From an archaeon (lineage in GTDB: Archaea > Iainarchaeota > Iainarchaeia > Iainarchaeales > CSSED10-239): 64,000 nt of DNA. Positions 4,117 through 60,966 of the stretch are shown piece after piece. Below the pieces are notes generated by a model. That model was not told the origin of the DNA. It was given only the letters and a program-made list of their open reading frames with translations, and made no database searches. The stretch lies in the NCBI GenBank assembly GCA_035400625.1, contig DAOMZT010000001.1, positions 306,644-370,643 on the forward strand. Direction: 5' to 3'. How positions within the stretch are numbered: the first letter of the stretch is position 1; every line of letters starts with the position of its first letter. The translations under genes were made by a program, and so were the position numbers.

Positions 4117-5058
4117 TTATTTAAGTATGCGAGATATTTCTTTGAGAATCAATTTTTTATCTTGCTGAAAAAATTGCACTTTTTCTTTATGATTCATGTC
4201 AGCAAACATTTTAGTAACCTTCTGCATATTTTTAAGATTTTGCATAGGTTTAATAGATTCAAATATTATTGGAAAAAAGCGGCCCAAGTAATCATAGACA
4301 CTACGATAAACCCTTAATTCTTGGTTAAGACATTCTTCAAATATTTCTTGGGATAAATTAAGTCTTTTTTTCATTTGTACTGGTTTTGAACTAAACTCGT
4401 AAAGTGCATTTAACAAAAAATGATCTCCGCATTTAAACGGATTATCACTACCAAGGGACATGTAGTATCTATCATATAATTTCTGTACAAAATTAGTAAT
4501 TGTCCGCAAATCTTCAGGGGTTGGGTTTGCATTAATTATTTTAGGAATGACTTTCTTAAAATAATCACTTCTATAAGCAACATTAGGAAATCTACCCCAA
4601 TTGTCCTCTAGTTGTGATGCTTGCCTTGTAATTTCCGTCAAATATTTAATAAACAAGTTAGGATCGGCGCTGGTTTGTGCAGTTAGTTTGATTGCTGCAT
4701 CTGTGGCGATACCAAAGTTAATATTATCGCCTTTTAATAGTTTATCTCTTATTGACCTTTTTTTTGAAATAAGCTTAGCGCTATTAGTTATCCTTTTAAG
4801 TTCAGCTACTCTCTTTTCTATTTCTGCTTCTCTTATTACTTTATTAATTAATTTATTTTTCTCTGATGATATTTTTTTAATTTTTGATAAAGTCTTAGGG
4901 TCAATAGATTTATTTTTAATTTCTGCTTTTTTAGTTGATTCCTTCTTTACTTTTGATTTCTTTTCAGCAACAAATTTACGCTTACCCATTGTTATTGATT
5001 TTACTTTTTCTGCATTAGGAAAACTGCCTCTTCTTAAATTTCTTGTTGGCTTTAACAT
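4117..5058 (-). CDS. hypothetical protein, basic N-terminal tail (MLKPTRNLRR), Lys-rich linker, helical C-terminal domain; paralog of 40255..41190
   Basis: 313 aa. It shares KP.RNL at the N-terminus and FIK[YF]LTE at about residue 130 with the 311-aa ORF at 40255. Confidence 0.6.
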   Translation of the reverse strand: MLKPTRNLRRGSFPNAEKVKSITMGKRKFVAEKKSKVKKESTKKAEIKNKSIDPKTLSKIKKISSEKNKLINKVIREAEIEKRVAELKRITNSAKLISKKRSIRDKLLKGDNINFGIATDAAIKLTAQTSADPNLFIKYLTEITRQASQLEDNWGRFPNVAYRSDYFKKVIPKIINANPTPEDLRTITNFVQKLYDRYYMSLGSDNPFKCGDHFLLNALYEFSSKPVQMKKRLNLSQEIFEECLNQELRVYRSVYDYLGRFFPIIFESIKPMQNLKNMQKVTKMFADMNHKEKVQFFQQDKKLILKEISRILK

Positions 5059-6408: not shown

Positions 6409-8631
6409 ATGTTAAAATCAATAATTTTAGAAAACTGGAAGACACACCAGAACACAAAAGTTTCTTTTGAGAAAGGCACAAACATAATTGTTGGAAAGAT
6501 TGGTGCTGGTAAGTCCAGTATTGTTGATGCTATATGTTATTCTCTTTTTGGCACATTTCCAAGCCTGCAAAACAGAAAGATAACTTTGGCTGAAACAATA
6601 ATGTTTAAGCCAGTAAAAAGAAAAGAAGCAAAGCTAAAGCTTGAGTTTGAGCATGATTCTAAAAACTACAGGGTTGAAAGAGAAATTTTTATTGGAAAAG
6701 TTAATACTGCTAAGCTTTTTTGCGAAGACAAGTTGCTTGTTGGCCCAAAGCAAACAGATGTTAATGAGAGGGTTTCAAACATTCTTGGAATTGACTATGA
6801 TCTTTTTGTAAAAATAGTATATAGCGAACAAAACGAAATTGATTATTTTCTAAAGATACCTCCAAGCAAAAGAAAAGAACAGTTTGATGCTCTTTTTGGT
6901 ATTAACAATTTAGAAAAGATAAAAATAAATTCTCGTTCTCTAAAGGCATATCTTGATGCAGAGTATGGTGCAATTCAAAAATTGATTGCTCAGCTAGAAA
7001 ACCAGCTTTTGTCTTTTAATATTTCTGATACAGAAAAGAATATTCAAGAAAACCAAGAAAAAATAAAGCACTTATTAGAATCTACAAACAATCTCAAGTC
7101 CAGAGAACAAGACCTGAAATCCAAAGTTGAAATTTTAAAAAAGCAAAAAACAGAATTTGATACTCTTAATCAAGAGATAAGAGCAATAGATTATAGAAAA
7201 CAAGAGCTCTCAAAAGAGCTTAGTGTTTTAGAAACACAAAAAACCAATTTCTTTTCGCTTACAAGAGATGTGCTTTTAGAGAAAAAGCAAGATTTACAAA
7301 AGCAGTTAAAAGAAAGCCAAGAGCTAGAAACAAAACTTAAATCAATTGCTTCCCAGAATTTTATCTTGACTAACCAGCTTGAGCAGATCAATAGTTCTCT
7401 TGATGTTTCTTTAGATTTATCCAAAATAAATCTAGAAAAAGAAAAGATTTCGCAAGAAATCAATAGTGCTATCCAAAAACAAGCAATTCTTAATTCCCAA
7501 AAACAAGAGAATCTAAAAGCAGTAGCTGAGCTTGAAAAGGGCTTTTCTAAATGTCCTGTATGTGATTCGCAATTGTCAGAAATTCAGATTTTTGAAAAAC
7601 TAAAATCAAAAAAAGAAACAAATGCAAAAATAACAAATGATATTTTGGCTCTTGATAAATCTTTGTTATCATTAAGAGAAGAATTTAGTTTGCTACAGAA
7701 AAAAGAAAGAAAAGCAAGTGAGCAACATTTGTTAGTTGATAGAAAGCAAAGAATAATTGAAGAAAAGAAAAAGCTTGATGAGCAAGAAAAGGCTCTTGGC
7801 AAGCCAAAAGACATTTCTGCTCTTGAAAAAGAGATAGATGCTATAATTCAAGCAATAGACTACCAAACTAAAAAAGAACAATTGTCTGAAATTATAAAAA
7901 AACAAGAATTTTTCTCTAAGAAGCTTTTAAGCATGAATTATGATGATAATAATTATCTCTCGTTATTAGCAGATCTGAGAAACCAAGAAGAGAAACTAAA
8001 TAACAATAATGTTCAAATATCTTTGATACAAGGAATAATAAAAAATCTAGAAAACACAAAAGCACAATATGAAAAATTATCTTTGAATCTTAAAGAAAAT
8101 CAAAACACAATAACAAAACTAGAAACAAAACAAAAAGATATGGTTTTCTTTTCTCAGGCTCTTGAAAATAGCCAAGAACATCTTCGTAAAGTGCTTGTTG
8201 ATAATATTAACAAGACATTAGAAGTGATTTGGCCAAAGGTCTATCCTTATGGCGATTATCTTTCAGCAAGGCTAAAAGCAGAAAATGATTATGTCTTGGA
8301 AGTTTTGACCTTAGGAAAAGAATGGATAAGAGTTGAAGGGCTTTTATCAGGTGGTGAAAGAACCTGTGCAGCACTAAGCATCAGGGTTGCTATTGCTTTG
8401 TCTTTGACAAAAAATCTTGGCTTGTTAATACTTGATGAGCCAACCCACAATATGGATTCAAAAACCATTTCTATGTTATCCTCAATTCTTGATAAAGAGC
8501 TTCCTGAGCTAGTAGAACAAATATTTATAATAACTCATGACCAAAAGTTATTAGAAACTACAAACTCAAGCAAGTACATAATTGAAAGAGATAAAGAAAA
8601 CGACGGAGTTTCATTTATAAAAGAGGAGTGA
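6409..8631 (+). CDS. rad50: DNA double-strand break repair ATPase Rad50
   Basis: Walker A GKIGAGKSS, a long coiled coil with a CPVC zinc hook, the signature LSGGERTCAALSIRVA, and Walker B LLILDEPTHNMD. ATG at 6409 is preferred over TTG at 6400. Confidence 0.9.
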   Translation: MLKSIILENWKTHQNTKVSFEKGTNIIVGKIGAGKSSIVDAICYSLFGTFPSLQNRKITLAETIMFKPVKRKEAKLKLEFEHDSKNYRVEREIFIGKVNTAKLFCEDKLLVGPKQTDVNERVSNILGIDYDLFVKIVYSEQNEIDYFLKIPPSKRKEQFDALFGINNLEKIKINSRSLKAYLDAEYGAIQKLIAQLENQLLSFNISDTEKNIQENQEKIKHLLESTNNLKSREQDLKSKVEILKKQKTEFDTLNQEIRAIDYRKQELSKELSVLETQKTNFFSLTRDVLLEKKQDLQKQLKESQELETKLKSIASQNFILTNQLEQINSSLDVSLDLSKINLEKEKISQEINSAIQKQAILNSQKQENLKAVAELEKGFSKCPVCDSQLSEIQIFEKLKSKKETNAKITNDILALDKSLLSLREEFSLLQKKERKASEQHLLVDRKQRIIEEKKKLDEQEKALGKPKDISALEKEIDAIIQAIDYQTKKEQLSEIIKKQEFFSKKLLSMNYDDNNYLSLLADLRNQEEKLNNNNVQISLIQGIIKNLENTKAQYEKLSLNLKENQNTITKLETKQKDMVFFSQALENSQEHLRKVLVDNINKTLEVIWPKVYPYGDYLSARLKAENDYVLEVLTLGKEWIRVEGLLSGGERTCAALSIRVAIALSLTKNLGLLILDEPTHNMDSKTISMLSSILDKELPELVEQIFIITHDQKLLETTNSSKYIIERDKENDGVSFIKEE
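8616..8627. repeat. 12-bp direct repeat copy 1 (tataaaagagga) inside the rad50 3' end
   Basis: An exact copy recurs at 9362-9373, inside the 3' end of the next ORF. Confidence 0.5.
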
Positions 8632-47712: not shown

Positions 47713-48213
47713 ATGAATTTGCCAGTAACAAATCCAATTGTAAAGAATGCTCCATTAGATAAGATTATTCCTGATAAGCTATTCTTAGATTTGTTGGATA
47801 AAAAATTTACTGGCTATGTTTATTTAATAATTGAGGGTAAATATAGTTTTGAAGAATCAATATTAATCTTAAATGCTGGCAAAATAGAAGGTGCGATATA
47901 TATAATAGATGGATATGATACTGAAATGTTTGGCAAAGAGGCAATTGACTATTGTTTAAATTGTTATGGCGCAACAAACGGAAGATTAAATATTTTTGCA
48001 TTAACTTCTGATCAAATAAAATTAATATTGTTATTTAACGACAAGATAAAATATGCTTGGCCAATCAAAAAAAGCAAAGACCTTTTAATATTTAGAAACA
48101 TAAAATATAACGAAGCATTAATCTATAATTTATTAAAAGAAAAAATAGTAAAAAACAAAACATCAAAAGATGTATTAAGTGATTTTAATTTAGATGATTT
48201 ATTAAAAGAATAA
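47713..48213 (+). CDS. hypothetical protein, DUF4388/roadblock-like pattern
   Basis: FTGYVYLIIEG....ILILNAGKIEGAIY...GKEAIDY pattern. Tight spacing with its neighbours. Confidence 0.35.
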   Translation: MNLPVTNPIVKNAPLDKIIPDKLFLDLLDKKFTGYVYLIIEGKYSFEESILILNAGKIEGAIYIIDGYDTEMFGKEAIDYCLNCYGATNGRLNIFALTSDQIKLILLFNDKIKYAWPIKKSKDLLIFRNIKYNEALIYNLLKEKIVKNKTSKDVLSDFNLDDLLKE

Positions 48214-51892: not shown

Positions 51893-53125
51893 ATGAATAT
51901 TAAAAAAATTAAGGCGATAAGAATAATTGATTCTAGGGGTGTGCCAACAATTAGAACTTTTGTGTTTACTGATAATGCTGTTGGCGTTGCAAGTGTTCCG
52001 TCAGGAACCAGCAGTGGCAAAAGAGAAGCCTTAGAGTTAAGAGATGGTGGCAAGGCTTTTGGTGGAAAAGACGTAACAAAAGCCATCAATAATGTTAATT
52101 CAAAGATTTCAAAAAAATTAATTGGCGAGTTTATTCTTGACCAGAAAAGAATAGATGAATTAATGTTAGAACTTGACAATACAGAAAATAAATCAAATCT
52201 TGGGGCAAATGCTATTCTTTCTGTAAGTCTTGCTTGTGCAAAGGCTGCATCTTTAGAGCTTGATGTTCCATTACACAATTACATTTCTAAACTAAATTAC
52301 AAAAAAGGAAAAAACAAAATGCCAATTCCTTTTTTAAACATAATAAATGGCGGTGCACATGCTGGAACTGAGCTAGCTTTTCAAGAGTTCCAAATAGTTC
52401 CACATAAAAAAACTTTTTCTGAGAATATAAGAGTTTCTTGCGAAATCTACCATACACTAAAAGACATAATTTCAAGAAAATATGGTGCTGGTTCAACAAA
52501 TGTAGGTTTAGAAGGGGGGTTTGCACCAAATATCAATGATCCTAAAGATGCCTTAGATCTTATGGAAGATGCAATTATAAAAGCAGGCAATAAAAAAGAA
52601 ATAACTATTGGCCTTGATGTTGCTGCTAGTGAAATCTATAATAATAAAAAATATCTTGTAAATTCTAAAAAATATTCTTCAGAAGAAATGATGGATTATT
52701 ATTCTTCTCTTCTTAAATCTTATAACATTACATCAATAGAAGACCCGTTGTCAGAAGATGATAAATTATCTTGGCCAATCTTTACAAAAAAGTTTGGAAA
52801 TAAGATTGCAGTAATTGGAGATGATCTTTTAGTAACAAACCCAAAATTGATAAAAGAAGCAATAAAAAAGAAACAATGTAACTCTCTTCTTTTAAAGGTA
52901 AACCAGATTGGAACATTAACAGAAAGTGTTGAGGCCTTTAATTTGGCAAAAAAAGCTAATTGGAAAGTTGTTGTTTCACACAGGTCAGGAGAGACAGAAG
53001 ATAGTTTTATTGCTGACTTGTCTTATGGACTTGGTTCGGACTTTATTAAGTTTGGTTCTCCAGTAAGAAGTGAGAGAACAGCAAAATATAACAGGTTATT
53101 AGAAATTGAAGGGAATATCATGTAA
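51893..53125 (+). CDS. eno: enolase
   Basis: SVPSGTSSG, IGDDL and SHRSGETED motifs. Length is 410 aa. Confidence 0.93.
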   Translation: MNIKKIKAIRIIDSRGVPTIRTFVFTDNAVGVASVPSGTSSGKREALELRDGGKAFGGKDVTKAINNVNSKISKKLIGEFILDQKRIDELMLELDNTENKSNLGANAILSVSLACAKAASLELDVPLHNYISKLNYKKGKNKMPIPFLNIINGGAHAGTELAFQEFQIVPHKKTFSENIRVSCEIYHTLKDIISRKYGAGSTNVGLEGGFAPNINDPKDALDLMEDAIIKAGNKKEITIGLDVAASEIYNNKKYLVNSKKYSSEEMMDYYSSLLKSYNITSIEDPLSEDDKLSWPIFTKKFGNKIAVIGDDLLVTNPKLIKEAIKKKQCNSLLLKVNQIGTLTESVEAFNLAKKANWKVVVSHRSGETEDSFIADLSYGLGSDFIKFGSPVRSERTAKYNRLLEIEGNIM

Positions 53126-53218
53126 TTTGTTAAAGTTAAGAATTTACGAAACCTTTAAAAACAATTATTATATAAACTTATTTATAATATATATATTAAA
53201 TTAAAAAGTGATTTATTT

Positions 53219-54064
53219 ATGGCAAAAGATTTAGGAGACGATTTCGGTTCTGATTTTGATATGGGAGGATCTAAAAAAGTATTTGGTGGATCAAAGATCA
53301 AATGGGAGACTTTGTTACCAATAATTATAATCATTGTAGTTATTTTGTTAATTGTTTTTAGAACTAATATATTGGCTACAGGGTTAAATATCTTTGGTGC
53401 CAAGCAAGGTGCTAAGATTTTGATACTTGGAGCGCCATCTCCAGAGTTTAGGGCAATATTAACAGATCAAGAAAATAAAGATATTATCAAAGAAGCTAGA
53501 TTTATGACTTTGGATAGTATTTCTCACAATCCTGAAGAAAGAATAAAAAATTATGATATAATTATTCTAGATCAATCAATGCAAGCTGATAAGACAGTAA
53601 CCAGAAGGACTGGCGAAGCAATAACTAATTATGTTAGAAAAGGTGGAAGGCTTATTGTTGTTTTAAATTCAGGAATTAAAAGACCTGATGATCCTTCAGT
53701 TCTTGGCTGGCAAGCAAACTTTGGTGGAATTGTCCCAGTAAATTGTTATAATTCTGGTGGGACACCATCATGTTTAAGTCAAAGAGATCTTCAAGGAACT
53801 TTATATGTAATAAAAGAAGATCATCCAGTTGTTAAAGGAATAACACAAGTTCCAGCTGTTGAGACATCAGGAAGTATAAGAACCCAAACATTTGATGTTT
53901 CAATAGATGGAACAGAGATTGCTTATTTAGAGGATTCTAGAACAAAGAAGACCTATACCGGAATTGTTGAAGAGCCATTATTAATGGGCAAAGTTATTTA
54001 TTTCAATTTCAATCCAGCAATAAGCAAAGCAATCGTAATTAAAACAATACAATATATGAGTTAA
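53219..54064 (+). CDS. hypothetical membrane-anchored protein
   Basis: An acidic/Gly N-terminus, the TM segment LLPIIIIIVVILLIVF, and an extracytoplasmic domain (YDIIILDQS, RKGGRLIVVLNSG). Confidence 0.5.
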   Translation: MAKDLGDDFGSDFDMGGSKKVFGGSKIKWETLLPIIIIIVVILLIVFRTNILATGLNIFGAKQGAKILILGAPSPEFRAILTDQENKDIIKEARFMTLDSISHNPEERIKNYDIIILDQSMQADKTVTRRTGEAITNYVRKGGRLIVVLNSGIKRPDDPSVLGWQANFGGIVPVNCYNSGGTPSCLSQRDLQGTLYVIKEDHPVVKGITQVPAVETSGSIRTQTFDVSIDGTEIAYLEDSRTKKTYTGIVEEPLLMGKVIYFNFNPAISKAIVIKTIQYMS

Positions 54065-54168
54065 GTAAAATAACTTAACTTTTCTTTTTTTATTTTTAAA
54101 ATACATTTATAAATTGTATTATTCATAAATTATATATTATATTTTCCCGTTAATACTGCTTTAAGGCA

Positions 54169-54175
54169 GGAGGTG
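54169..54175 (+). promoter_or_regulatory. Shine-Dalgarno (GGAGGTG) for rpl1
   Basis: A perfect anti-SD complement 8 nt upstream of the TTG start at 54184. Confidence 0.5.
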
Positions 54176-54183
54176 CTAAGATT

Positions 54184-54855
54184 TTGGATAAAAGTATAAC
54201 AGAAAAACATGTAATTGAAAAGGCATTAAACGAATTAATGTCTATTTCAAAACAAAGAAACTTTGATGAAGCAATAGAAATGATTGTAACATTAAAGAAC
54301 ATAAATGTTAAAAACAAAGATCAAAGAATAGAATATTCAGTCAATCTGCCTCATCCTTATTTAGATAATGTCAAATCTTTAGTTTTTGTAAAGGATAAAA
54401 ACCTTGCTCTAGAACTAAAAGATGTTGTTGATAAAGTTATTATGGATGATGAAATTGCAAAGATTTCTAAGAAAGATGCAAAGAAAATGGCAGAGGAATA
54501 TAAGGTTTTCTTGGCTGAAGGACCAGTTATGCTAACCGTTGGTAAGCACTTAGGACAGGTTCTTAGTCCTAGAGGAAAGATGCCTTTAGTTGCTCCACCA
54601 AATGTCAATGCAATAAAAACTTTAATTACTACGACAATTTCACAACAAAAAATTTCTAATAAAAAAAGTAAATCATCTGTGGCTTTGCAAATAAAAATCG
54701 GGAAAAAGAGCCAAGGTGTTAAAGATTTAACAGATAATTTTTTAGTTGTAATTAAATCATTGATTGATAGATTGCCTGCAGGTTTACAAAACCTAAATCA
54801 CATCTATATCAAGTCAACAATGAGTAAAAGCATAAAAATGGGTGATGACGAATGA
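54184..54855 (+). CDS. rpl1: 50S ribosomal protein L1
   Basis: TTG start. RNFDEAIEMIVTLKNI and VNLPHP fit the L1 N-terminal consensus. The L1-P0-P1 gene order also supports the call. Confidence 0.88.
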   Translation: MDKSITEKHVIEKALNELMSISKQRNFDEAIEMIVTLKNINVKNKDQRIEYSVNLPHPYLDNVKSLVFVKDKNLALELKDVVDKVIMDDEIAKISKKDAKKMAEEYKVFLAEGPVMLTVGKHLGQVLSPRGKMPLVAPPNVNAIKTLITTTISQQKISNKKSKSSVALQIKIGKKSQGVKDLTDNFLVVIKSLIDRLPAGLQNLNHIYIKSTMSKSIKMGDDE

Positions 54856-55607
54856 ATCACACAAAAACTTGGAGACTTGCACAATATGATGAGATTAGTA
54901 AGTTAATTTCACAATTTAAAATTATTGGCATTGCAGATCTTAAAGACTTTCCATCTAATCTTTTACAAAAGGTTAAGAAAAATATTGATGATGCAACTTT
55001 TAAAGTAACATCAAAGAATGTTTTAAAGAAAGTTTTGGAAAGCAAAGGCCATAAAGATATTGTTGAAAAATTACCAAATCAACCAATATTAATCTTAACA
55101 AATAAAAATGCTTTTGAATTGTATGGTGCAATAAAGAAAAGTAAAGCTCGTTCAAAAGCAAAGATTGGAATGATATCTCCAATTGATATTGTTGTTCCAG
55201 CAGGAGACACAGGTCTTCCACCAGGTCCAGCATTATCTGATTTGAAAAAGGTAGGTATCAAGGCCCAAGTAAGAGGTGCAACAATTTTTGTTCCTGATGA
55301 TACCGTCATAGTTAAGGCTGGTGGTGTTATTAATGGCGATGTTGTTAGCACTTTGTCTAAGCTTGATATTAAGCCTGTTGAACTTATTCTAGATGTTGTT
55401 CTAGTTAAGGAAGACGGAATGATTTATTCCAAGGATGTGCTTGATATTGATGCGGATACTATTATCTTGCAGATTGCAACAGCTGCTCGTCAAGCAGTAG
55501 GTCTTGGTGTTGAGATTGGTTACATCTGTAAAGATACAGTTGAGCCAATGATAGCAAAAGCAGAAAGAGAGGCTAAAGCACTTGATGCTTTAGTCAATAA
55601 AGCATAA
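54852..55607 (+). CDS. rplP0: 50S ribosomal stalk protein P0 (L10), short form
   Basis: TKTWRLAQYDEISKLI..IGIADLKDFPSNLLQKVKK matches archaeal P0. It is only 251 aa and has no acidic ..GLxALFG tail. Confidence 0.85.
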   Translation: MNHTKTWRLAQYDEISKLISQFKIIGIADLKDFPSNLLQKVKKNIDDATFKVTSKNVLKKVLESKGHKDIVEKLPNQPILILTNKNAFELYGAIKKSKARSKAKIGMISPIDIVVPAGDTGLPPGPALSDLKKVGIKAQVRGATIFVPDDTVIVKAGGVINGDVVSTLSKLDIKPVELILDVVLVKEDGMIYSKDVLDIDADTIILQIATAARQAVGLGVEIGYICKDTVEPMIAKAEREAKALDALVNKA

Positions 55608-55625
55608 TTAAATGAGGTGTGAAAT

Positions 55626-55916
55626 ATGGATTATATATATGCAGTTTTGTTATTACACAAAGCTAACAAAGAAATAAATGAGGCTAACATAAAATCAGTA
55701 TTAACTTCAGCAGGAGTTTCAGCTGATGATGCAAAGATAAAAGGTCTTGTTGCAACATTAAAGGACATAAACATTGAAGATGCAATTGCAAAGGCATCAG
55801 TTGTAGCAGCAGCTCCAGCAGCAACAGCAACTAGCGAGACAAAGAAAGAAGTCAAAGAAGAGCATGTTGTTACTGAAGAAGCAGCAGCAGAAGGCCTTAG
55901 TGCATTATTTGGTTAA
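55626..55916 (+). CDS. rpl12: 50S ribosomal stalk protein P1 (L12)
   Basis: MDYIYAVLLLH, an A-rich hinge, and the C-terminal EEAAAEGLSALFG. Confidence 0.88.
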   Translation: MDYIYAVLLLHKANKEINEANIKSVLTSAGVSADDAKIKGLVATLKDINIEDAIAKASVVAAAPAATATSETKKEVKEEHVVTEEAAAEGLSALFG

Positions 55917-56028
55917 TTTTAACCAAATATTTTCTTTTTCTTTTTTTAAATTTCAAGAAAAACACATTTTATACTTTTTGATTAACAAAACCATTTATAA
56001 ACTATTTTTTTAATTTATATTATAGTTT

Positions 56029-57585
56029 ATGTCAGATTTTGTAGAACACAGATTTGTTAAGAAAGAAACAATTCAAAAAAGACTTTATCAAGAGCTTTTA
56101 ACAGCACAAGCAATTAAGCAAAGCACTCTTGTTGTTGCCCCAACTGGTTTAGGTAAAACAATCATTGCTGTTCTGTTGATTGCTTATACCTACAACCCAA
56201 AGAAATCAGTAATTCTCTTATCACCTACTAAGCCATTAATATCTCAACATAAAAAAAGCATTATAAAATTCTTGGAGATTCCAGAAGATAAAATTATTCT
56301 TTTGACTGGCGAAACTTCCCAAGAGAAAAGAAAAGATTTCTATGATGGACAAGGCCTAATTATTTGTGCAACACCCCAAACTATACAACATGACTTGGAA
56401 AAAAAACTTCTTGACCCCAAAAACTTTAATCTTATTATATTTGATGAGGCACATAGAGCAGTTGGCAATTACTCATATACTTTTATTTCTCAGTATTTTT
56501 CAGATGATGTTAAAAGATTAGGATTAACTGCCTCTCCTGGGGCTAGCAAAGCAAAGATTCAAGAGGTTGCAGACAACCTTGGCATTTCACATATAGAGAT
56601 AAGAACAGAGCAAGACCTTGATGTTAAAGATTATGTTAACGATATTGAAGTTGATATAAAGTTTTTGGAGCTTGACCCTATCTCAAAAGAAATATCTAAA
56701 ACCATTGATTCTTATATTTTGCAAAAGATAAATCTTTTGCGTAAGCTTGGCTGTCCAATACCAACCAATTATTCCAAAAAACAAATAATTGCTATTCAAG
56801 CTGGTCTTTTTGAGAGAGTAAAGAAGGTAAAGAATAATACTGGTTTTATTGCAATTTCAACAATCGCCTCTGTTCTTAAGTTTCTTCATGCCAAAGAACT
56901 AATTGAAACTCAGGGTTTTTTTGCAACAGAAACTTATCTTTTAAAATTAAAAACAGATAATCTTGAAAAGAAATCAAAAGCACTATCTGCAATTATTAAT
57001 TCATCTGAGTTTTTAGAGGTACTTAAGCTTCTTGAAAAAGCAAAGACAAAGAGATGTGCTAAAGAAACGGCTCTTCTAGAAATGGTTTCAAGCTTTCTGA
57101 AGGAAAACCCAAACTCGCGAATTCTTGTTTTTAACAACTATAGGGATAATGCAAACCATCTTGTAGAGGTGCTTAATCAAACAAGTGGTATAAAAAGCTC
57201 ACGATTTGTTGGACAGGCAACCAAAAGCCTCTCCGATAAAGGATTATCTCAAAAAGATCAATCAAAAATCATTTCTGATTTTCGTGAAGGCATCTATAAT
57301 GTTTTGGTGTGTACTTCTGTTGGCGAAGAGGGTCTTGATATCCCATCAGTTGATTTAGTAGTATTTTACGACGCTGTTGCCTCTGAGATAAGAAATATCC
57401 AGAGGCGTGGAAGAACCGGCCGTTTTAATGTTGGCAAAGTTATATTGCTTCTTAACAAAGACACCATTGACGAAAAATATTATTTTGTTTCCCAAAACAA
57501 AGAAAAGAAAATGAAATCAATTCTTAAAAATTTCTATAAGCCAGAAAGGAAAAAAAGGGTGCAAAAAAAGCTAAGTGATTATTAA
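56029..57585 (+). CDS. hef: Hef/FANCM-type SF2 helicase (helicase half of Hef, separate ORF)
   Basis: APTGLGKT, FDEAHRAVGNY, LGLTASPG, an inserted helical domain, and QRRGRTGR. Length is 518 aa. Confidence 0.85.
   Translation: MSDFVEHRFVKKETIQKRLYQELLTAQAIKQSTLVVAPTGLGKTIIAVLLIAYTYNPKKSVILLSPTKPLISQHKKSIIKFLEIPEDKIILLTGETSQEKRKDFYDGQGLIICATPQTIQHDLEKKLLDPKNFNLIIFDEAHRAVGNYSYTFISQYFSDDVKRLGLTASPGASKAKIQEVADNLGISHIEIRTEQDLDVKDYVNDIEVDIKFLELDPISKEISKTIDSYILQKINLLRKLGCPIPTNYSKKQIIAIQAGLFERVKKVKNNTGFIAISTIASVLKFLHAKELIETQGFFATETYLLKLKTDNLEKKSKALSAIINSSEFLEVLKLLEKAKTKRCAKETALLEMVSSFLKENPNSRILVFNNYRDNANHLVEVLNQTSGIKSSRFVGQATKSLSDKGLSQKDQSKIISDFREGIYNVLVCTSVGEEGLDIPSVDLVVFYDAVASEIRNIQRRGRTGRFNVGKVILLLNKDTIDEKYYFVSQNKEKKMKSILKNFYKPERKKRVQKKLSDY
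57572..57585. repeat. 14-bp perfect direct repeat copy 1 (taagtgattattaa)
   Basis: Covers the last codons and TAA of the hef helicase ORF. It recurs exactly at 58198-58211. Confidence 0.9.
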
Positions 57586-57646
57586 ATCCATTTATAAGCT
57601 TAACTTATCTGGTATTATTTAACATAAGTTTAAATAAGGTGAGGAA

Positions 57647-57916
57647 ATGTTAGAAAAAACAGTAAATGTAAATCTCAAAATATCTGACTATTCTAATAGA
57701 GTGTTAGGAGTAGTAAAAGAGAAATATGGCTTTAAGGACAAATCTCAGGCTCTCGATAAAATAATGGATATGTATGGGGAAGAGTTTGTAGAAAAAGAGG
57801 TTAGAGAAGATGTTATTTTAGAAGTGATTGCAGAAGTTGAAAAAATGAAAATGCAAAAACAAAAGCCAATGTCTAAAAGTGAATTAAATAAGTTTTTTGA
57901 AAATGCTAAAAAGTAA
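57647..57916 (+). CDS. putative antitoxin (DUF2683-like small protein)
   Basis: VNLKISDYSNRVLGVVKEKYGFKDKSQALDKIM resembles archaeal antitoxin-like proteins. GGTGAGG lies upstream. Its stop lies 9 nt before the toxin ATG. Confidence 0.5.
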   Translation: MLEKTVNVNLKISDYSNRVLGVVKEKYGFKDKSQALDKIMDMYGEEFVEKEVREDVILEVIAEVEKMKMQKQKPMSKSELNKFFENAKK

Positions 57917-57925
57917 TGTGGTAAA

Positions 57926-58204
57926 ATGACATTTGCTTCTAATCTATCTAATGAATTAAAAGAAACAATTAAGAAATTGTATTCTAAAGACAAAAAACTT
58001 TTTTTAGAATTACAAAAAAAGATAAATCTAATTATCTCTTGTGATAAAGAAACTATCAATCATTATAAAAATTTAAGATACGGTCTTTCAGATTACAAAA
58101 GAGTGCATGTTGGAAAATCTATTGTTCTTTTATTTTCAGTAGATGTGCAGAATAATACAGTCTATTTTGTAAAATTTGATCATCACGATAAAATTTATAA
58201 GTGA
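57926..58204 (+). CDS. relE: RelE/ParE-family type II toxin
   Basis: 92 aa. YKNLRYGLSDYKRVHVGKSIVLLFSVDVQNNTVYFVKFDHHDKIY follows the RelE pattern (L.G....R.RVG.YR..Y.........I....HR..VY). Confidence 0.65.
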   Translation: MTFASNLSNELKETIKKLYSKDKKLFLELQKKINLIISCDKETINHYKNLRYGLSDYKRVHVGKSIVLLFSVDVQNNTVYFVKFDHHDKIYK

Positions 58205-58211
58205 TTATTAA
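58198..58211. repeat. 14-bp perfect direct repeat copy 2 (taagtgattattaa)
   Basis: Covers the last codon and TGA of the toxin, the spacer, and the first nt of the hef nuclease ATG. Confidence 0.9.
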
Positions 58212-58879
58212 TGACTCAAAAAATAAAAATTATTTGTGACACTCGTGAAAGAGTTAGTCAAATTTATCAAGAGCTAAAAGCTCTAACAAACGATTCCTTT
58301 GAAGTAGAGGTTGTTGTAGAACAGTTATCTCTTGGCGACTACCAGCTAAGCGATCAGGTCTTGATTGAAAGAAAAACAATAGCTGATCTTGAAAGTTCAA
58401 TTATTGATGGCAGGATTTTCTCACAGCTTGATAATCTTTCAAGCAAGGTAAATAAGCCAGGCCTAATTATTGAAGGGGTTATTAATTTTTCAGAAAGTAA
58501 CACTCGAATCAACAACAAGTCCTTGATTGGCCTTATCACTGCAATTGGTCTTAACTATCGTGTCCCGATCTTTTTTACAAGGAACCAAAAAGAAACCGCT
58601 CTTTTTCTTTATGTGATTGCAAAGCGTGAGCAGTTTGGTGTCAAGACAGAAATCAAACATCGCTTCAGCAAGAGCAGGATGTCCTTTTCTGATCAGCAAT
58701 TATTTATCTTGGAGTCTTTTCCAGATATTGGCCCAACACTTGCTAAAGCTCTTCTTAAAAAATTTAAAAATATCAGAAACATCGCCAATGCTACAGTTAA
58801 GGAGCTTCAAGAAGTGGAGCAGATGGGTCCAAAGAAAGCAGAAAAGATGCATTATCTTTTCTTAAGAGATTTTATTTAG
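58211..58879 (+). CDS. hef: ERCC4/XPF-type nuclease with C-terminal (HhH)2 (nuclease half of Hef)
   Basis: ICDTRE, the GDYQLSDQVLIERKTIADLESSIIDGR ERCC4 signature, and the C-terminal FPDIGPTLAKALL...MGPKKAEKM. Confidence 0.88.
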   Translation: MTQKIKIICDTRERVSQIYQELKALTNDSFEVEVVVEQLSLGDYQLSDQVLIERKTIADLESSIIDGRIFSQLDNLSSKVNKPGLIIEGVINFSESNTRINNKSLIGLITAIGLNYRVPIFFTRNQKETALFLYVIAKREQFGVKTEIKHRFSKSRMSFSDQQLFILESFPDIGPTLAKALLKKFKNIRNIANATVKELQEVEQMGPKKAEKMHYLFLRDFI

Positions 58880-58884
58880 TTTTT
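58852..58884. repeat. 33-bp direct repeat copy 1 (ttatcttttcttaagagattttatttagttttt)
   Basis: Covers the last 8 codons and TAG of the hef nuclease plus 5 nt. Copy 2 at 59530-59562 differs at one position. Confidence 0.9.
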
Positions 58885-58935
58885 GCTATACTTATTTAAA
58901 TAATTGCAATTATATGATTTTTGAGGTTTTCATAC

Positions 58936-59517
58936 ATGAATAAAATGAAATCAATAATGTTAATATCTTGTTTTATATTATTTATTATCGCTCCTGTTTA
59001 TGCATCAGCAATGCGTGGTGAAGCAATAAATAATCAAACTAAAGAGTGTGCCACTTATTTTCAAGGTGATGAATGCATGGACTGTGCGTTATCAGATCCC
59101 TGGATTGAACGAAAACACGGAGAACCTTGCCCAGAAGGATACAGAGAAATTAAAGATATGCAAGCACCTTCTATTTGTACGCCTATTCAAAATCAGTTTT
59201 GCTGTGAGGAATATCATTCTGGGGCAAGTGGCAATTGTACAAATCTTGTTATAAACAATATTACAAAAGAATGTGCATTTGTTTTGGACATTAATAGTTG
59301 TGAGAAATTGCCAAAAAATTGGTTGCCAGTAGCATCTACTGAATATAAAAATTGTCCAATAAGTTTAGAATATAAATGGTTAGATGATGTGTTAGTGTGT
59401 GATACCAAATCTACAAATTACAATAAATTCTATATGTTTGTTGTGATTGCAATTATAATAATCTTAATAATGGGAGTTTGTCTTAAAAAATATAAAAAGG
59501 TTTTATGTCGTCAATAA
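58936..59517 (+). CDS. Cys-rich secreted protein with a C-terminal TM anchor and basic tail
   Basis: Signal peptide MNKMKSIMLISCFILFIIAPVYA, about 14 Cys in the ectodomain, and the C-terminus FYMFVVIAIIIILIMGVCLKKYKK. ATG at 58936 is preferred over TTG at 58921. Confidence 0.6.
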   Translation: MNKMKSIMLISCFILFIIAPVYASAMRGEAINNQTKECATYFQGDECMDCALSDPWIERKHGEPCPEGYREIKDMQAPSICTPIQNQFCCEEYHSGASGNCTNLVINNITKECAFVLDINSCEKLPKNWLPVASTEYKNCPISLEYKWLDDVLVCDTKSTNYNKFYMFVVIAIIIILIMGVCLKKYKKVLCRQ

Positions 59518-59529
59518 GCAAATAAGATT

Positions 59530-59562
59530 TTATCTTTTCTTAAGAGATTTTACTTAGTTTTT
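59530..59562. repeat. 33-bp direct repeat copy 2
   Basis: ttatcttttcttaagagattttacttagttttt, ending 1 nt before the stop of the convergent ORF 59563..59916. Confidence 0.9.
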
Positions 59563-59916
59563 TTAAATGCAATTTTTAATCTTTAAAAAGGTTATTTCTG
59601 GCTTATATGTTTTTTTTTGTTTTCCTGTCCTTTGTAATGGTGTTCCTTTTATTTGAACTTTTCCTCTTGCTGCCATGATGTTATACTCTAAAATAAGATC
59701 TCTAAGATGTTTTTTTGCTTTGCTCATTTCTTTTGTAGTGATTTGATATTTGTTTTCTAATTTTTCTAGTTTTTTTACAAGTTCAAATTGTCTTTCAATG
59801 TTAAGTATTCTATCTATATTAGTTTGTTTTCTTATTAGCCTTTTGGTTACATCTTTTGTCTGTTTTCTTGCAATTCCGCTTTTACCAATTCTTCTTTTTA
59901 CATTATATTTAGGCAT
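59563..59916 (-). CDS. small basic hypothetical protein (MPKYNVKRRIGKSG...)
   Basis: 117 aa, K/R-rich with a coiled-coil-like centre. No recognisable family. Confidence 0.5.
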   Translation of the reverse strand: MPKYNVKRRIGKSGIARKQTKDVTKRLIRKQTNIDRILNIERQFELVKKLEKLENKYQITTKEMSKAKKHLRDLILEYNIMAARGKVQIKGTPLQRTGKQKKTYKPEITFLKIKNCI

Positions 59917-60019: not shown

Positions 60020-60415
60020 ATGGTTGAATGGAAAAGAGTATCAAGAAGAAAAGCAACAGGCGGAGTAAATAATGCTGTTAATGCTAAAACAAAATCCTTA
60101 AGTGATAAGGGCGGTAAATTCTCAAAGACAACAATTGCAAAAGCAGATAAGAGATTCAAGACCAGAGCTGTTGGTGGCAATAAAAAAACAAAGATTTCTC
60201 ATGCTCAGTATGTCTTGGTTTCTGAAGGTAACAAGACAATAAAAGCAAAAGTTATAGATGTTACAGAGAATCCAGCAAACAAGCACTTTGTAAGACAAAA
60301 GATAATCACAAAAGGTGCAATCCTTAAAGTAGATGTAGATGGCAAAGATGCAAAAGTAAAAGTAACATCAAGACCTGGTCAATCAGGCCAAGTAACTGGT
60401 GTTTTTGTTAAATGA
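60020..60415 (+). CDS. rps8e: 30S ribosomal protein S8e
   Basis: SRRKATGG, RAVGGNKK, ENPANKHFVRQKIITKGA and VTSRPGQSGQV motifs. Confidence 0.9.
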   Translation: MVEWKRVSRRKATGGVNNAVNAKTKSLSDKGGKFSKTTIAKADKRFKTRAVGGNKKTKISHAQYVLVSEGNKTIKAKVIDVTENPANKHFVRQKIITKGAILKVDVDGKDAKVKVTSRPGQSGQVTGVFVK

Positions 60416-60966
60416 AATCCAATTCTTTTGTTAAGAGATTTAAAAAAGATTTAAAAAATAAGAATGAGCACAAAAAAGCTCTTCTTTTCTTGTTCTTGTT
60501 TATTTTTGTATTTTCGCTTTCTTATTTGTTGTTTGCCAAGTCTCCAATTTCGGGATATATAAATTATTTTTTTGGTTTTTCATCTAGTGTAGTATTGTCT
60601 GTTTTTGGCGTAAGCAATAATTTTGTTTTTGATTCATTGACAAAGACCTCCACAATTGTTGTGTCCAATCTTAAAGAACCAATAGTGATTTCTTTTCTTT
60701 GTTCAGGCATCCTAGAATTTTGCCTTTTAATTTCTGCTATTCTTTCTTCAGTAGGTGTTTCTCTAAATAAAAGGATAGTTGGCGCTCTTCTTGCAATTCC
60801 AATCATATTTTTCTTTAATCTCACAAGGATAGTTGTTACTTCTCTAATAATAATAAATAGCAATCTTTCTTTTGCAAATTTTGTACATGGTTTCCTTTTT
60901 AGGCTTTTCCTTATAATTATTGTTATTGGAACCTATTATGTTTGGTTTAGAACTAACACTGAGTGA
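60412..60966 (+). CDS. exosortase/archaeosortase-family membrane protein (short form)
   Basis: Polytopic protein with a conserved-looking Cys (SFLCSGILEF), Arg (FFNLTRIVV) and His (FANFVHGFLF) in the order expected for the sortase-like triad. ATGA overlap with rps8e. Confidence 0.55.
   Translation: MKSNSFVKRFKKDLKNKNEHKKALLFLFLFIFVFSLSYLLFAKSPISGYINYFFGFSSSVVLSVFGVSNNFVFDSLTKTSTIVVSNLKEPIVISFLCSGILEFCLLISAILSSVGVSLNKRIVGALLAIPIIFFFNLTRIVVTSLIIINSNLSFANFVHGFLFRLFLIIIVIGTYYVWFRTNTE

Follow-up and report, generated by a model that had tools for sequence, protein, structure and literature searches.

A one-gene insertion with target duplication at the 3' end of a Hef-type nuclease gene in a DPANN archaeon

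The rearrangement known as "insertion with long target duplication" is Kobayashi's class (Nobusato 2000, Gene 259:99; Furuta, Abe & Kobayashi 2010, NAR 38:2428, PMC2853133). Its members are gene-sized inserts that carry no mobility genes and are bounded by direct repeats of 26-65 bp, both of which align to a unique target in the empty genome, often one that overlaps the 3' end of a gene (PMC2853133). The repeat length varies between events, which is a hallmark of the class, and Furuta et al. worked with a cutoff of >30 bp (PMC2853133). For the attachment (att) sites that bound the integrated mobile elements of archaea, reported lengths are 8 to >25 bp in Thaumarchaeota and 29-69 bp for crenarchaeal elements; among 68 thaumarchaeal elements, 14 lie in 3'-distal parts of protein genes (PMC6563490). 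Here, we describe a locus in a 64-kb stretch of DNA (the window; GenBank assembly GCA_035400625.1, contig DAOMZT010000001.1, positions 306,644 to 370,643) in which a single gene for a Cys-rich surface protein lies between two copies of the 3' end of a Hef-type nuclease gene. The host is a DPANN archaeon, listed as Candidatus Diapherotrites in the sources and with relatives named Ca. Iainarchaeum. The insertion is of a known kind, and the locus provides an archaeal example that is polymorphic within a population and has a second case next door.

The target gene (58211-58879, plus strand) encodes a Hef-type nuclease of 222 aa with ERCC4 and HhH2 domains (Pfam ERCC4, 2.1e-26; HHH_5, 7.6e-11). The final 28 nt of its open reading frame (ORF), together with the next 5 nt, make up the first copy of a 33-mer, TTATCTTTTCTTAAGAGATTTTATTTAGTTTTT, which we refer to as repeat R. 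Copy 1 (58852-58884, plus strand) comprises the nuclease codons YLFLRDFI, the stop codon, and TTTTT, and the nuclease ORF stays intact. Copy 2 (59530-59562, plus strand) begins 678 bp further on and reads ..YLFLRDFT* followed by TTTTT. The single mismatch between them is a T at 58875 in copy 1 versus a C at 59553 in copy 2. When both strands of the window were scanned for R with up to three mismatches, these two copies were the only matches, and 100 dinucleotide-preserving shuffles returned none. In addition, the pair is the sole near-perfect direct repeat of such size within 6 kb across the whole window. A chance or dispersed repeat was ruled out by these counts. Nineteen loci, obtained from 16 different samples with several assemblers and drawn from ENA, Logan, JGI, and the NCBI metagenome-assembled genomes GCA_029563035.1 and GCA_035356995.1, agree with the window at every base of both copies, and the duplication is therefore no assembly artifact. 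An earlier note, made from the letters of this DNA, had reported the 33-bp repeat, its one T-to-C change, and the 678-bp offset, all of which hold, and had named dispersal of the 33-mer and misassembly as the outcomes that would overturn its reading; the scans counter the former and the 16 samples the latter. Two short contigs from different samples, L052 and L053, stop exactly at the last base of copy 1 (window 58884). Here the filled haplotype parts from the empty one, or one repeat copy from the other, and the contig ends suggest a branch in the assembly graph.

The window was compared with related loci of ~10-20 kb each, and empty sites were found at two evolutionary distances. In the sister species represented by L050, DNA across the region is ~87% identical to the window, the Cys-rich gene is absent, and the nuclease ends in ..YLFLREFT*, followed by 9 nt and the stop of the convergent orthologue. 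Blastn placed window positions 56016-58879 on L050 11224-8363 and window positions 59530-60991 on L050 8390-6925; the two alignments share the 28 nt of L050 8363-8390, which thus correspond to both copies in the window (58852-58879 and 59530-59557). The same picture emerges within the species, where flanks are ~98% identical. Here, L051 is filled and carries both copies, and the cassette is missing from L054 and L030, each of which has R once; two stretches of L051, one ending at 6674 and one starting at 7323, both align onto 4581-4613 of L054 and onto 5642-5674 of L030. In more than 15 further, more distant lineages, the nuclease stop touches or lies within a single convergent gene, and in none of these cassette-less lineages is a relic of the nuclease 3' end found beside the convergent gene. 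Because of the empty sites in L050 and L030/L054, and because the >15 lineages lack the relic, the filled state is the derived one. In window coordinates, the empty-type junction is nuclease-R-TTAAATGC, with 58884 joined to 59563. The uninterrupted junction between nuclease and convergent gene that the earlier note proposed to seek in relatives was thus found twice (L050; L030/L054), and its view of copy 2 as a relic of the nuclease 3' end was borne out by the alignment of both copies to one empty-site copy.

Judged from these alignments, the feature is a 645-bp insertion (58885-59529, plus strand) with a target duplication of 28-33 bp, the exact length depending on how the boundary T residues are assigned. 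The breakpoints are those of the blastn comparisons of the window with L050 and of L051 with L054 and L030, and the inserted DNA is absent at the empty sites. Copy 2 is the original nuclease end, displaced by the insert but still joined to the convergent gene as in the empty sites; it is collinear with L050 8390-8363 and the sequence downstream. The position that corresponds to 58875 is C in copy 1 of L051, in L030, L054, and L050, and in all copies 2, and the T of the window is a later, derived change. The insertion took place in an ancestor of this species.

Direct reading of the inserted DNA reveals a TATA-like TTTAAATA at 58895-58902, a GAGG at 58923-58926, and an ORF start at 58936. The T-rich copy 2 lies 3' of the stop of this ORF. 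The cargo gene (58936-59517, plus strand) encodes 193 aa and is the only ORF of at least 40 aa wholly between the copies that has homologues. Its product, which has ~20 Cys, consists of an N-terminal hydrophobic helix, a middle rich in beta structure and Cys, and, at residues 162-192, a C-terminal helix bearing a basic tail, consistent with a secreted Cys-rich ectodomain held by a C-terminal membrane helix. The lone intervening gene had previously been described as Cys-rich and C-terminally anchored, and the ORF and helix analyses agree. The cargo did not match Pfam, NCBIfam, or PHROG, and its family is unnamed. An AlphaFold (AF2) model had a mean predicted local distance difference test (pLDDT) score of 93.6, yet fold searches with Foldseek in PDB and in BFVD gave no match (best E-values of 3.7 and 0.56, respectively). 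A confident model that has no neighbor in either collection could indicate that the predicted fold is a possibly undescribed disulfide-rich extracellular one. A word-indexed search returned two homologues of the cargo (L020 and L021, 42-43% identity), and a profile search of 1.84 billion representatives returned 250 unnamed clusters (E<=1e-3). An alignment of 54 family members has 10 invariant residues, seven of which are Cys. The sole homologue with context, L020, lies in an unrelated neighborhood, and no flanking repeats were found around either L020 or L021.

The cargo of the window differs from that of L051 by nine non-synonymous and five synonymous codons and one inserted codon, with every Cys kept. 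In the flanking genes, the balance is opposite, with synonymous to non-synonymous counts of 10:2 for the nuclease, 14:5 for the helicase, and 4:1 for S8e. Synonymous divergence of the cargo resembles that of the flanks; therefore, the cassette was inherited in both strains and has not moved recently. The codon counts indicate that the cargo protein itself evolves fast, as surface proteins often do. The two cassette-bearing strains share the same 645-648 bp, without pseudogene debris. As for the source of the insert DNA, the window and the related loci give background word matches only. A sorting motif common to the cargo and the neighboring large surface proteins was not found in the window protein. 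Some members of the cargo family carry LPCxG before the C-terminal helix; the window protein is without it, and a link to the archaeosortase-family gene nearby is therefore not established.

Functions that could have moved the cassette were sought in the insert and around it. Searches of the insert and all neighbors against Pfam, NCBIfam, and PHROGs revealed no recombinase or transposase. There are no terminal inverted repeats at the insert ends, which have just one inverted 7-mer (CTTATTT) in common, at a subterminal position and no more than chance would give. R shows no hairpin or attC-like folding beyond that of shuffled sequences (z = -0.15 and -0.46), Rfam has no family that matches the site, and no IntI/attI platform is present among the neighbors (ribosomal proteins, Hef, S8e, and an archaeosortase-family protein). 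No further copies of R, of the insert DNA, or of the cargo protein occur in the window or the related loci, and no larger element occupies this site in ~30 related loci. A viral or plasmid origin of the cargo was considered and dropped, as neither sequence nor fold matched in a pattern scan of IMG/VR with the family alignment, in tblastn searches of phage and plasmid collections, in PHROGs, or in BFVD.

On the right side of the insertion lies a fast-evolving convergent gene for a coiled-coil protein whose N-terminus is basic (59563-59916, minus strand; 117 aa, or 107 aa in T8 strains). The difference arises from a T run at 59610-59618, which is T9 in the window, L001, and L012, giving the 117-aa ORF with its stop at 59563, and T8 in most strains, giving 107 aa with a stop at 59592. 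The proposal that copy 2, with its reading ..YLFLRDFT*, abuts the convergent stop (59563-59565) thus stands for this assembly but does not hold species-wide, since it needs T9. Function searches with the convergent gene yielded sub-threshold coiled-coil matches only. Its alleles are 22-38% identical though their flanks are 75-98% identical, even between strains of one species, and they range from 107 to 199 aa; the L050 orthologue has 77% amino acid identity to the window allele. The window allele lacks the C-terminal half that is found in most lineages. Alleles elsewhere are of 154-199 aa and overlap or abut the nuclease stop, and the overlap is 0, 4, 8, or 28 nt depending on the allele (the gene lies at L030 5662-6207, L051 7342-7896, L055 5642-6241, L022 6670-7248, L026 6666-7148, and L056 5672-6136). 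In L055, the 28 coding nt of R are precisely what the two genes share, and R of the window, read on the minus strand, still gives ..KSLKKR* versus ..KSLEKR* in L055. In L051, copy 2 (7323-7354) supplies the last codons and the stop of a 184-aa convergent allele (7342-7896).

The window and L051 are collinear over 53001-59566, that is, through copy 2 and the adjoining TTAA, and then carry unrelated convergent alleles (117 vs 184 aa) until 59891. L030 and L054 have no cassette and a 181-aa allele of the L051 type, and L050 has no cassette and an allele of the window type. All four combinations of cassette state and convergent type therefore exist (window, L051, L030/L054, and L050), which calls for either a crossover in the 33-37 bp of copy 2 or recurrent gain or loss at one site. 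The duplication of the zone in which the convergent genes overlap would have let each gene keep its own end, and this is probably why the event was retained.

A second locus of the same anatomy lies ~0.6 kb upstream of the R cassette, where an exact 14-nt direct repeat, corresponding to the helicase 3' end, lies on both sides of a toxin-antitoxin pair. Of the repeat, TAAGTGATTATTAA, the left copy (57572-57585, plus strand) comprises the final 14 nt of the ORF for the Hef helicase (56029-57585), stop included, and the right copy (58198-58211, plus strand) contains the TGA that ends the toxin gene and the first base (A) of the nuclease ATG. Between them, the insert (57586-58197, plus strand) contributes an antitoxin-like gene (57647-57916) and a YafQ/ParE/RelE-like toxin gene (57926-58204). 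The toxin matched TIGR00053 YafQ at 1.8e-16, which is below the model's cutoff, Pfam ParE_toxin at 7.7e-4, and a RelE-like PHROG at 1.4e-6. The pair is absent from L022, L055, L056, and L035, in which helicase and nuclease abut or overlap (TAATG in L055 and L056). Window 57201-57585 and 58198-58600 both align onto L056 with an overlap at 4988-5001, and the empty sites of L056, L055, and L022 can be aligned to both borders of the insert. An exact 14-mer shared by two 40-nt windows has a probability of ~3e-4. In other pair-bearing lineages, the second copy has decayed to ~8-10 of 14 nt, which fits an older insertion. On this comparison, the toxin-antitoxin pair is itself an insertion with target duplication.

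The L12-helicase intergenic region (55917-56028) is a third variable slot, as seen when it was compared with L022 2477-4428, L026, L029, L054 427-1744, and L050. Relatives carry one to three extra genes there (Bro-N, YhcG-like, PIN-like, and others), and in L054, 36 nt of window sequence are replaced. Target duplications were not found at the third-slot insertions of these relatives; the pattern of target duplication is therefore recurrent but not universal.

The wider neighborhood is conserved and archaeal. The neighbors encode the ribosomal proteins L1, L10, and L12, the Hef helicase, the nuclease, and S8e, and nuclease orthologues (55-99% identity) occur in the same L1-L10-L12-helicase-nuclease-S8e context in >25 loci. 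The gene that precedes the nuclease (56029-57585) encodes a DEAD/Helicase_C protein, and the two together constitute a split Hef. The split (56029-58879) extends throughout this clade, and where the toxin-antitoxin pair is missing, the ORFs abut or overlap. The G+C content of the window is 31%. Right after S8e, a gene for a 184-aa membrane protein (60412-60966) carries the TIGR04178 exosortase/archaeosortase signature (36.7 bits, cutoff 23) and is kept in relatives. It should be noted that some source gene calls (L012-L017) fuse toxin and nuclease (317 aa), lengthen S8e (144 aa), and join the two following ORFs (349 aa). These calls read through TGA (the stops were checked at 58202-58204 for the toxin and at 60413-60415 for S8e), and the callers apparently used a code in which TGA is sense for contigs of such low G+C. 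Since homologues stop at TGA, the fused calls look like a calling artifact.

Our current hypothesis, to which we give somewhat more credence than doubt, is that the R cassette arose by host-mediated insertion with long target duplication, the term here including a non-autonomous cassette. A 645-bp segment, with its own promoter-like and ribosome-binding signals, entered between the convergent 3' ends. As a foreign fragment, it could have been joined into a staggered break, after which fill-in of both overhangs would duplicate the target, or a replicative template switch could have copied the target a second time. Copy 1 completes the nuclease frame, and copy 2 still serves the convergent gene as its 3' end or termination zone. 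Selection would keep such an event since both overlapping gene ends survive. Both the 28-nt overlap in L055 and the ending of the convergent gene by copy 2 in L051 fit selection of this kind. Once present, the repeats would serve as substrates for ordinary homologous recombination, by which the cassette could be deleted or, together with its neighbor, exchanged between strains. The cassette would not be self-mobile, and the duplication would be a product of host DNA metabolism. We favor the host-mediated reading because the two repeats differ in length (33 and 14 nt) and share no significant motif, because neither an enzyme nor a parent element was found, and because there has been no recent movement. 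Several points weigh against it. The mechanism has been observed directly neither here nor for the published class. Archaeal tyrosine-recombinase att sites, too, look like a 33-bp repeat placed at a protein gene's 3' end (PMC6563490). The four combinations of cassette and convergent type, if produced by repeated insertion and excision at one site, would favor a site-specific activity, and it would be a little surprising if one-off accidents had left two such tiny cassettes next to each other, each with intact repeats. Lastly, a recombinase or additional copies could reside in the genome beyond the 64-kb window and the ~10-20-kb loci.

The main alternative is that R is an attachment site and that the cassette, as a 678-bp circle with one R, is integrated and excised by a recombinase encoded elsewhere, in analogy to integron cassettes or to Xer-exploiting and cis- or trans-mobilizable elements, with the 14-nt repeat as another such site. 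The repeat is at the 3' end of a protein gene and within the range of archaeal att lengths, and in two backgrounds the repeats form the exact borders of a self-contained cassette. Two unrelated convergent alleles are found beside the cassette, cassette-less strains exist with both types as well, and two small repeat-flanked cassettes share one operon. Even so, we consider this alternative unlikely. No recombinase lies in or beside either cassette, neither the cassette nor R was seen at a second location in the window, the related loci, IMG/VR, or the phage and plasmid collections, and synonymous divergence equal to that of the flanks gives no sign of recent movement. R lacks dyad symmetry and a hairpin, and the cargo homologues in L020 and L021 are without flanking repeats. 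The 33-mer and the 14-mer do share TAAGnGATTnT, but this 11-mer is not significant (five matches vs 1.66 expected), and its third match, at 48176, is ordinary coding sequence (codons LSDF). The earlier note had likened the pair to attL/attR or, alternatively, to a long target duplication that encloses a single-gene cassette. The empty sites support that description in general, and attL/attR is the less supported label of the two because no integrase, larger parent element, or second cassette insertion was found. A broader form of the same idea, which we regard as quite improbable, is that DPANN archaea have an undescribed route by which promoter-bearing mini-cassettes of ~0.6-0.7 kb, holding one gene or a toxin-antitoxin operon, are moved into stop-codon regions. 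If this were true, short sites like the 33-mer and the 14-mer would be the substrates of a recombinase encoded elsewhere or of the host's own Xer or recombination proteins, and the mini-cassettes would be excisable circles of an integrase-less, integron-like system aimed at gene 3' ends.

The remaining alternatives place the origin of the repeats elsewhere. A circle that already carried the 33 bp (or ~49 bp), for instance one excised from another strain, might have entered by Campbell-type homologous recombination, the repeats being the homology. A gapped similarity upstream of the repeat (AAGCAGAAAAGAT vs AAGCAAATAAGAT, 11 of 13 positions) would extend the duplication, and the window/L051 breakpoint at the end of copy 2 (59566) is consistent with, though no proof of, a crossover inside 33-37 bp. 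However, the upstream similarity is marginal (P ~0.025) and weaker in L051 (AAGCAAACAATAT), and we did not rely on it; no donor arrangement was found, and a Campbell event merely shifts the question of how the first duplication arose. We think such an event has a slim chance of being correct. The cassette might also be the last remnant of a larger virus or plasmid that had integrated at the nuclease 3' end with an integrase of its own and then decayed, in the manner of cis-mobilizable elements (CIMEs), to a single gene and the two att sites. Decay to integrase-less elements that keep attL and attR is documented (PMC5704250), and Cys-rich membrane proteins are plausible viral or plasmid cargo. 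Against this, no larger element was seen at the site in the ~30 related loci, both cassette strains hold the same 645-648 bp free of pseudogene debris, neither sequence nor fold searches gave a viral or plasmid homologue of the cargo, and an equally improbable clean decay would be needed for the adjacent toxin-antitoxin cassette; we judge a decayed element very improbable. An assembly artifact or a chance or dispersed repeat carries next to no probability. Apart from a priori considerations, only the contig ends of L052 and L053 speak for it, and it is refuted by identity in 16 samples and several assemblers, by the absence of shuffle matches, and by empty sites that align to both copies.

Regardless of how the cassette arrived, the locus shows a genome-reduced DPANN archaeon with packed, overlapping genes gaining a surface-protein gene while both neighbors remain unharmed, since the overlap zone of the convergent genes was duplicated and each gene keeps its own end. 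The cargo belongs to an uncharacterized cell-surface family of ~250 clusters whose differences between strains are mostly non-synonymous. With two adjacent events, natural polymorphism, and many public read sets, this locus is a practical place to seek excision or circle intermediates.

The comparison with known systems can be made by anatomy. Transposons, MITEs (miniature inverted-repeat transposable elements), and casposons also have inserts flanked by target duplications. Casposon target duplications are 14-15 bp, and the 14-nt repeat of the toxin-antitoxin pair is numerically casposon-like. Unlike these elements and insertion sequences, the R insert has no terminal inverted repeats and no Cas1 or transposase and is single-copy within the window and related loci, and the repeats of the two cassettes are of 33 and 14 nt rather than one fixed length. 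Integron cassettes are similar in being single-gene units of ~0.6-0.7 kb that have no recombinase of their own and are present or absent between strains. They differ in that the locus here has no attC-like folded site and no IntI/attI platform among the neighbors, the cassette apparently brings a promoter of its own, and the repeat stems from the host target, not from the cassette. Membership among transposons, casposons, or integron cassettes fails on these defining features.

Archaeal integrated mobile genetic elements (PMC6563490) and CIMEs (PMC5704250) come closer, as their inserts, like this one, lie between direct repeats and target a protein gene at its 3' end, and the element-side copy restores the gene end. 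Empty sites within the species (L030 and L054) and the four cassette/allele combinations could reflect excision and reuse of an att site, but homologous recombination is equally able to yield them. In contrast to those elements, the locus has no integrase, no related autonomous element at the site, one location, and no sign of recent movement, and the insert is 0.65 kb, whereas published elements measure kilobases to tens of kilobases.

Insertion with long target duplication is, by this comparison, the class that fits best. A gene-sized insert is present here and absent in a close relative with collinear flanks (87% identical in the sister species, 98% within the species), both copies of R align to one single-copy target in the empty site, and the repeat overlaps the 3' end of the neighboring gene. 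No integrase or transposase lies in or beside the insert, and R has only two copies within the 64-kb window. The repeat of 33 nt (28-33) exceeds the published cutoff, and the neighboring 14-nt repeat falls below it and shows variable length. The differences concern host and cargo. Published cases are bacterial, mostly from naturally competent species, whereas this host is a DPANN archaeon. Published cargo is restriction-modification, which reflects ascertainment and no mechanistic requirement, whereas here it is a Cys-rich surface protein with a toxin-antitoxin neighbor. The proposed cause of the published cases is DNA breakage by the cargo itself; as the cargo here is not restriction-modification, a restriction enzyme cannot be the cause. 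The locus thus extends the class to Archaea and to non-restriction cargo, which speaks for a mechanism residing in host DNA metabolism, or in a trans-acting enzyme, and not in the cargo.

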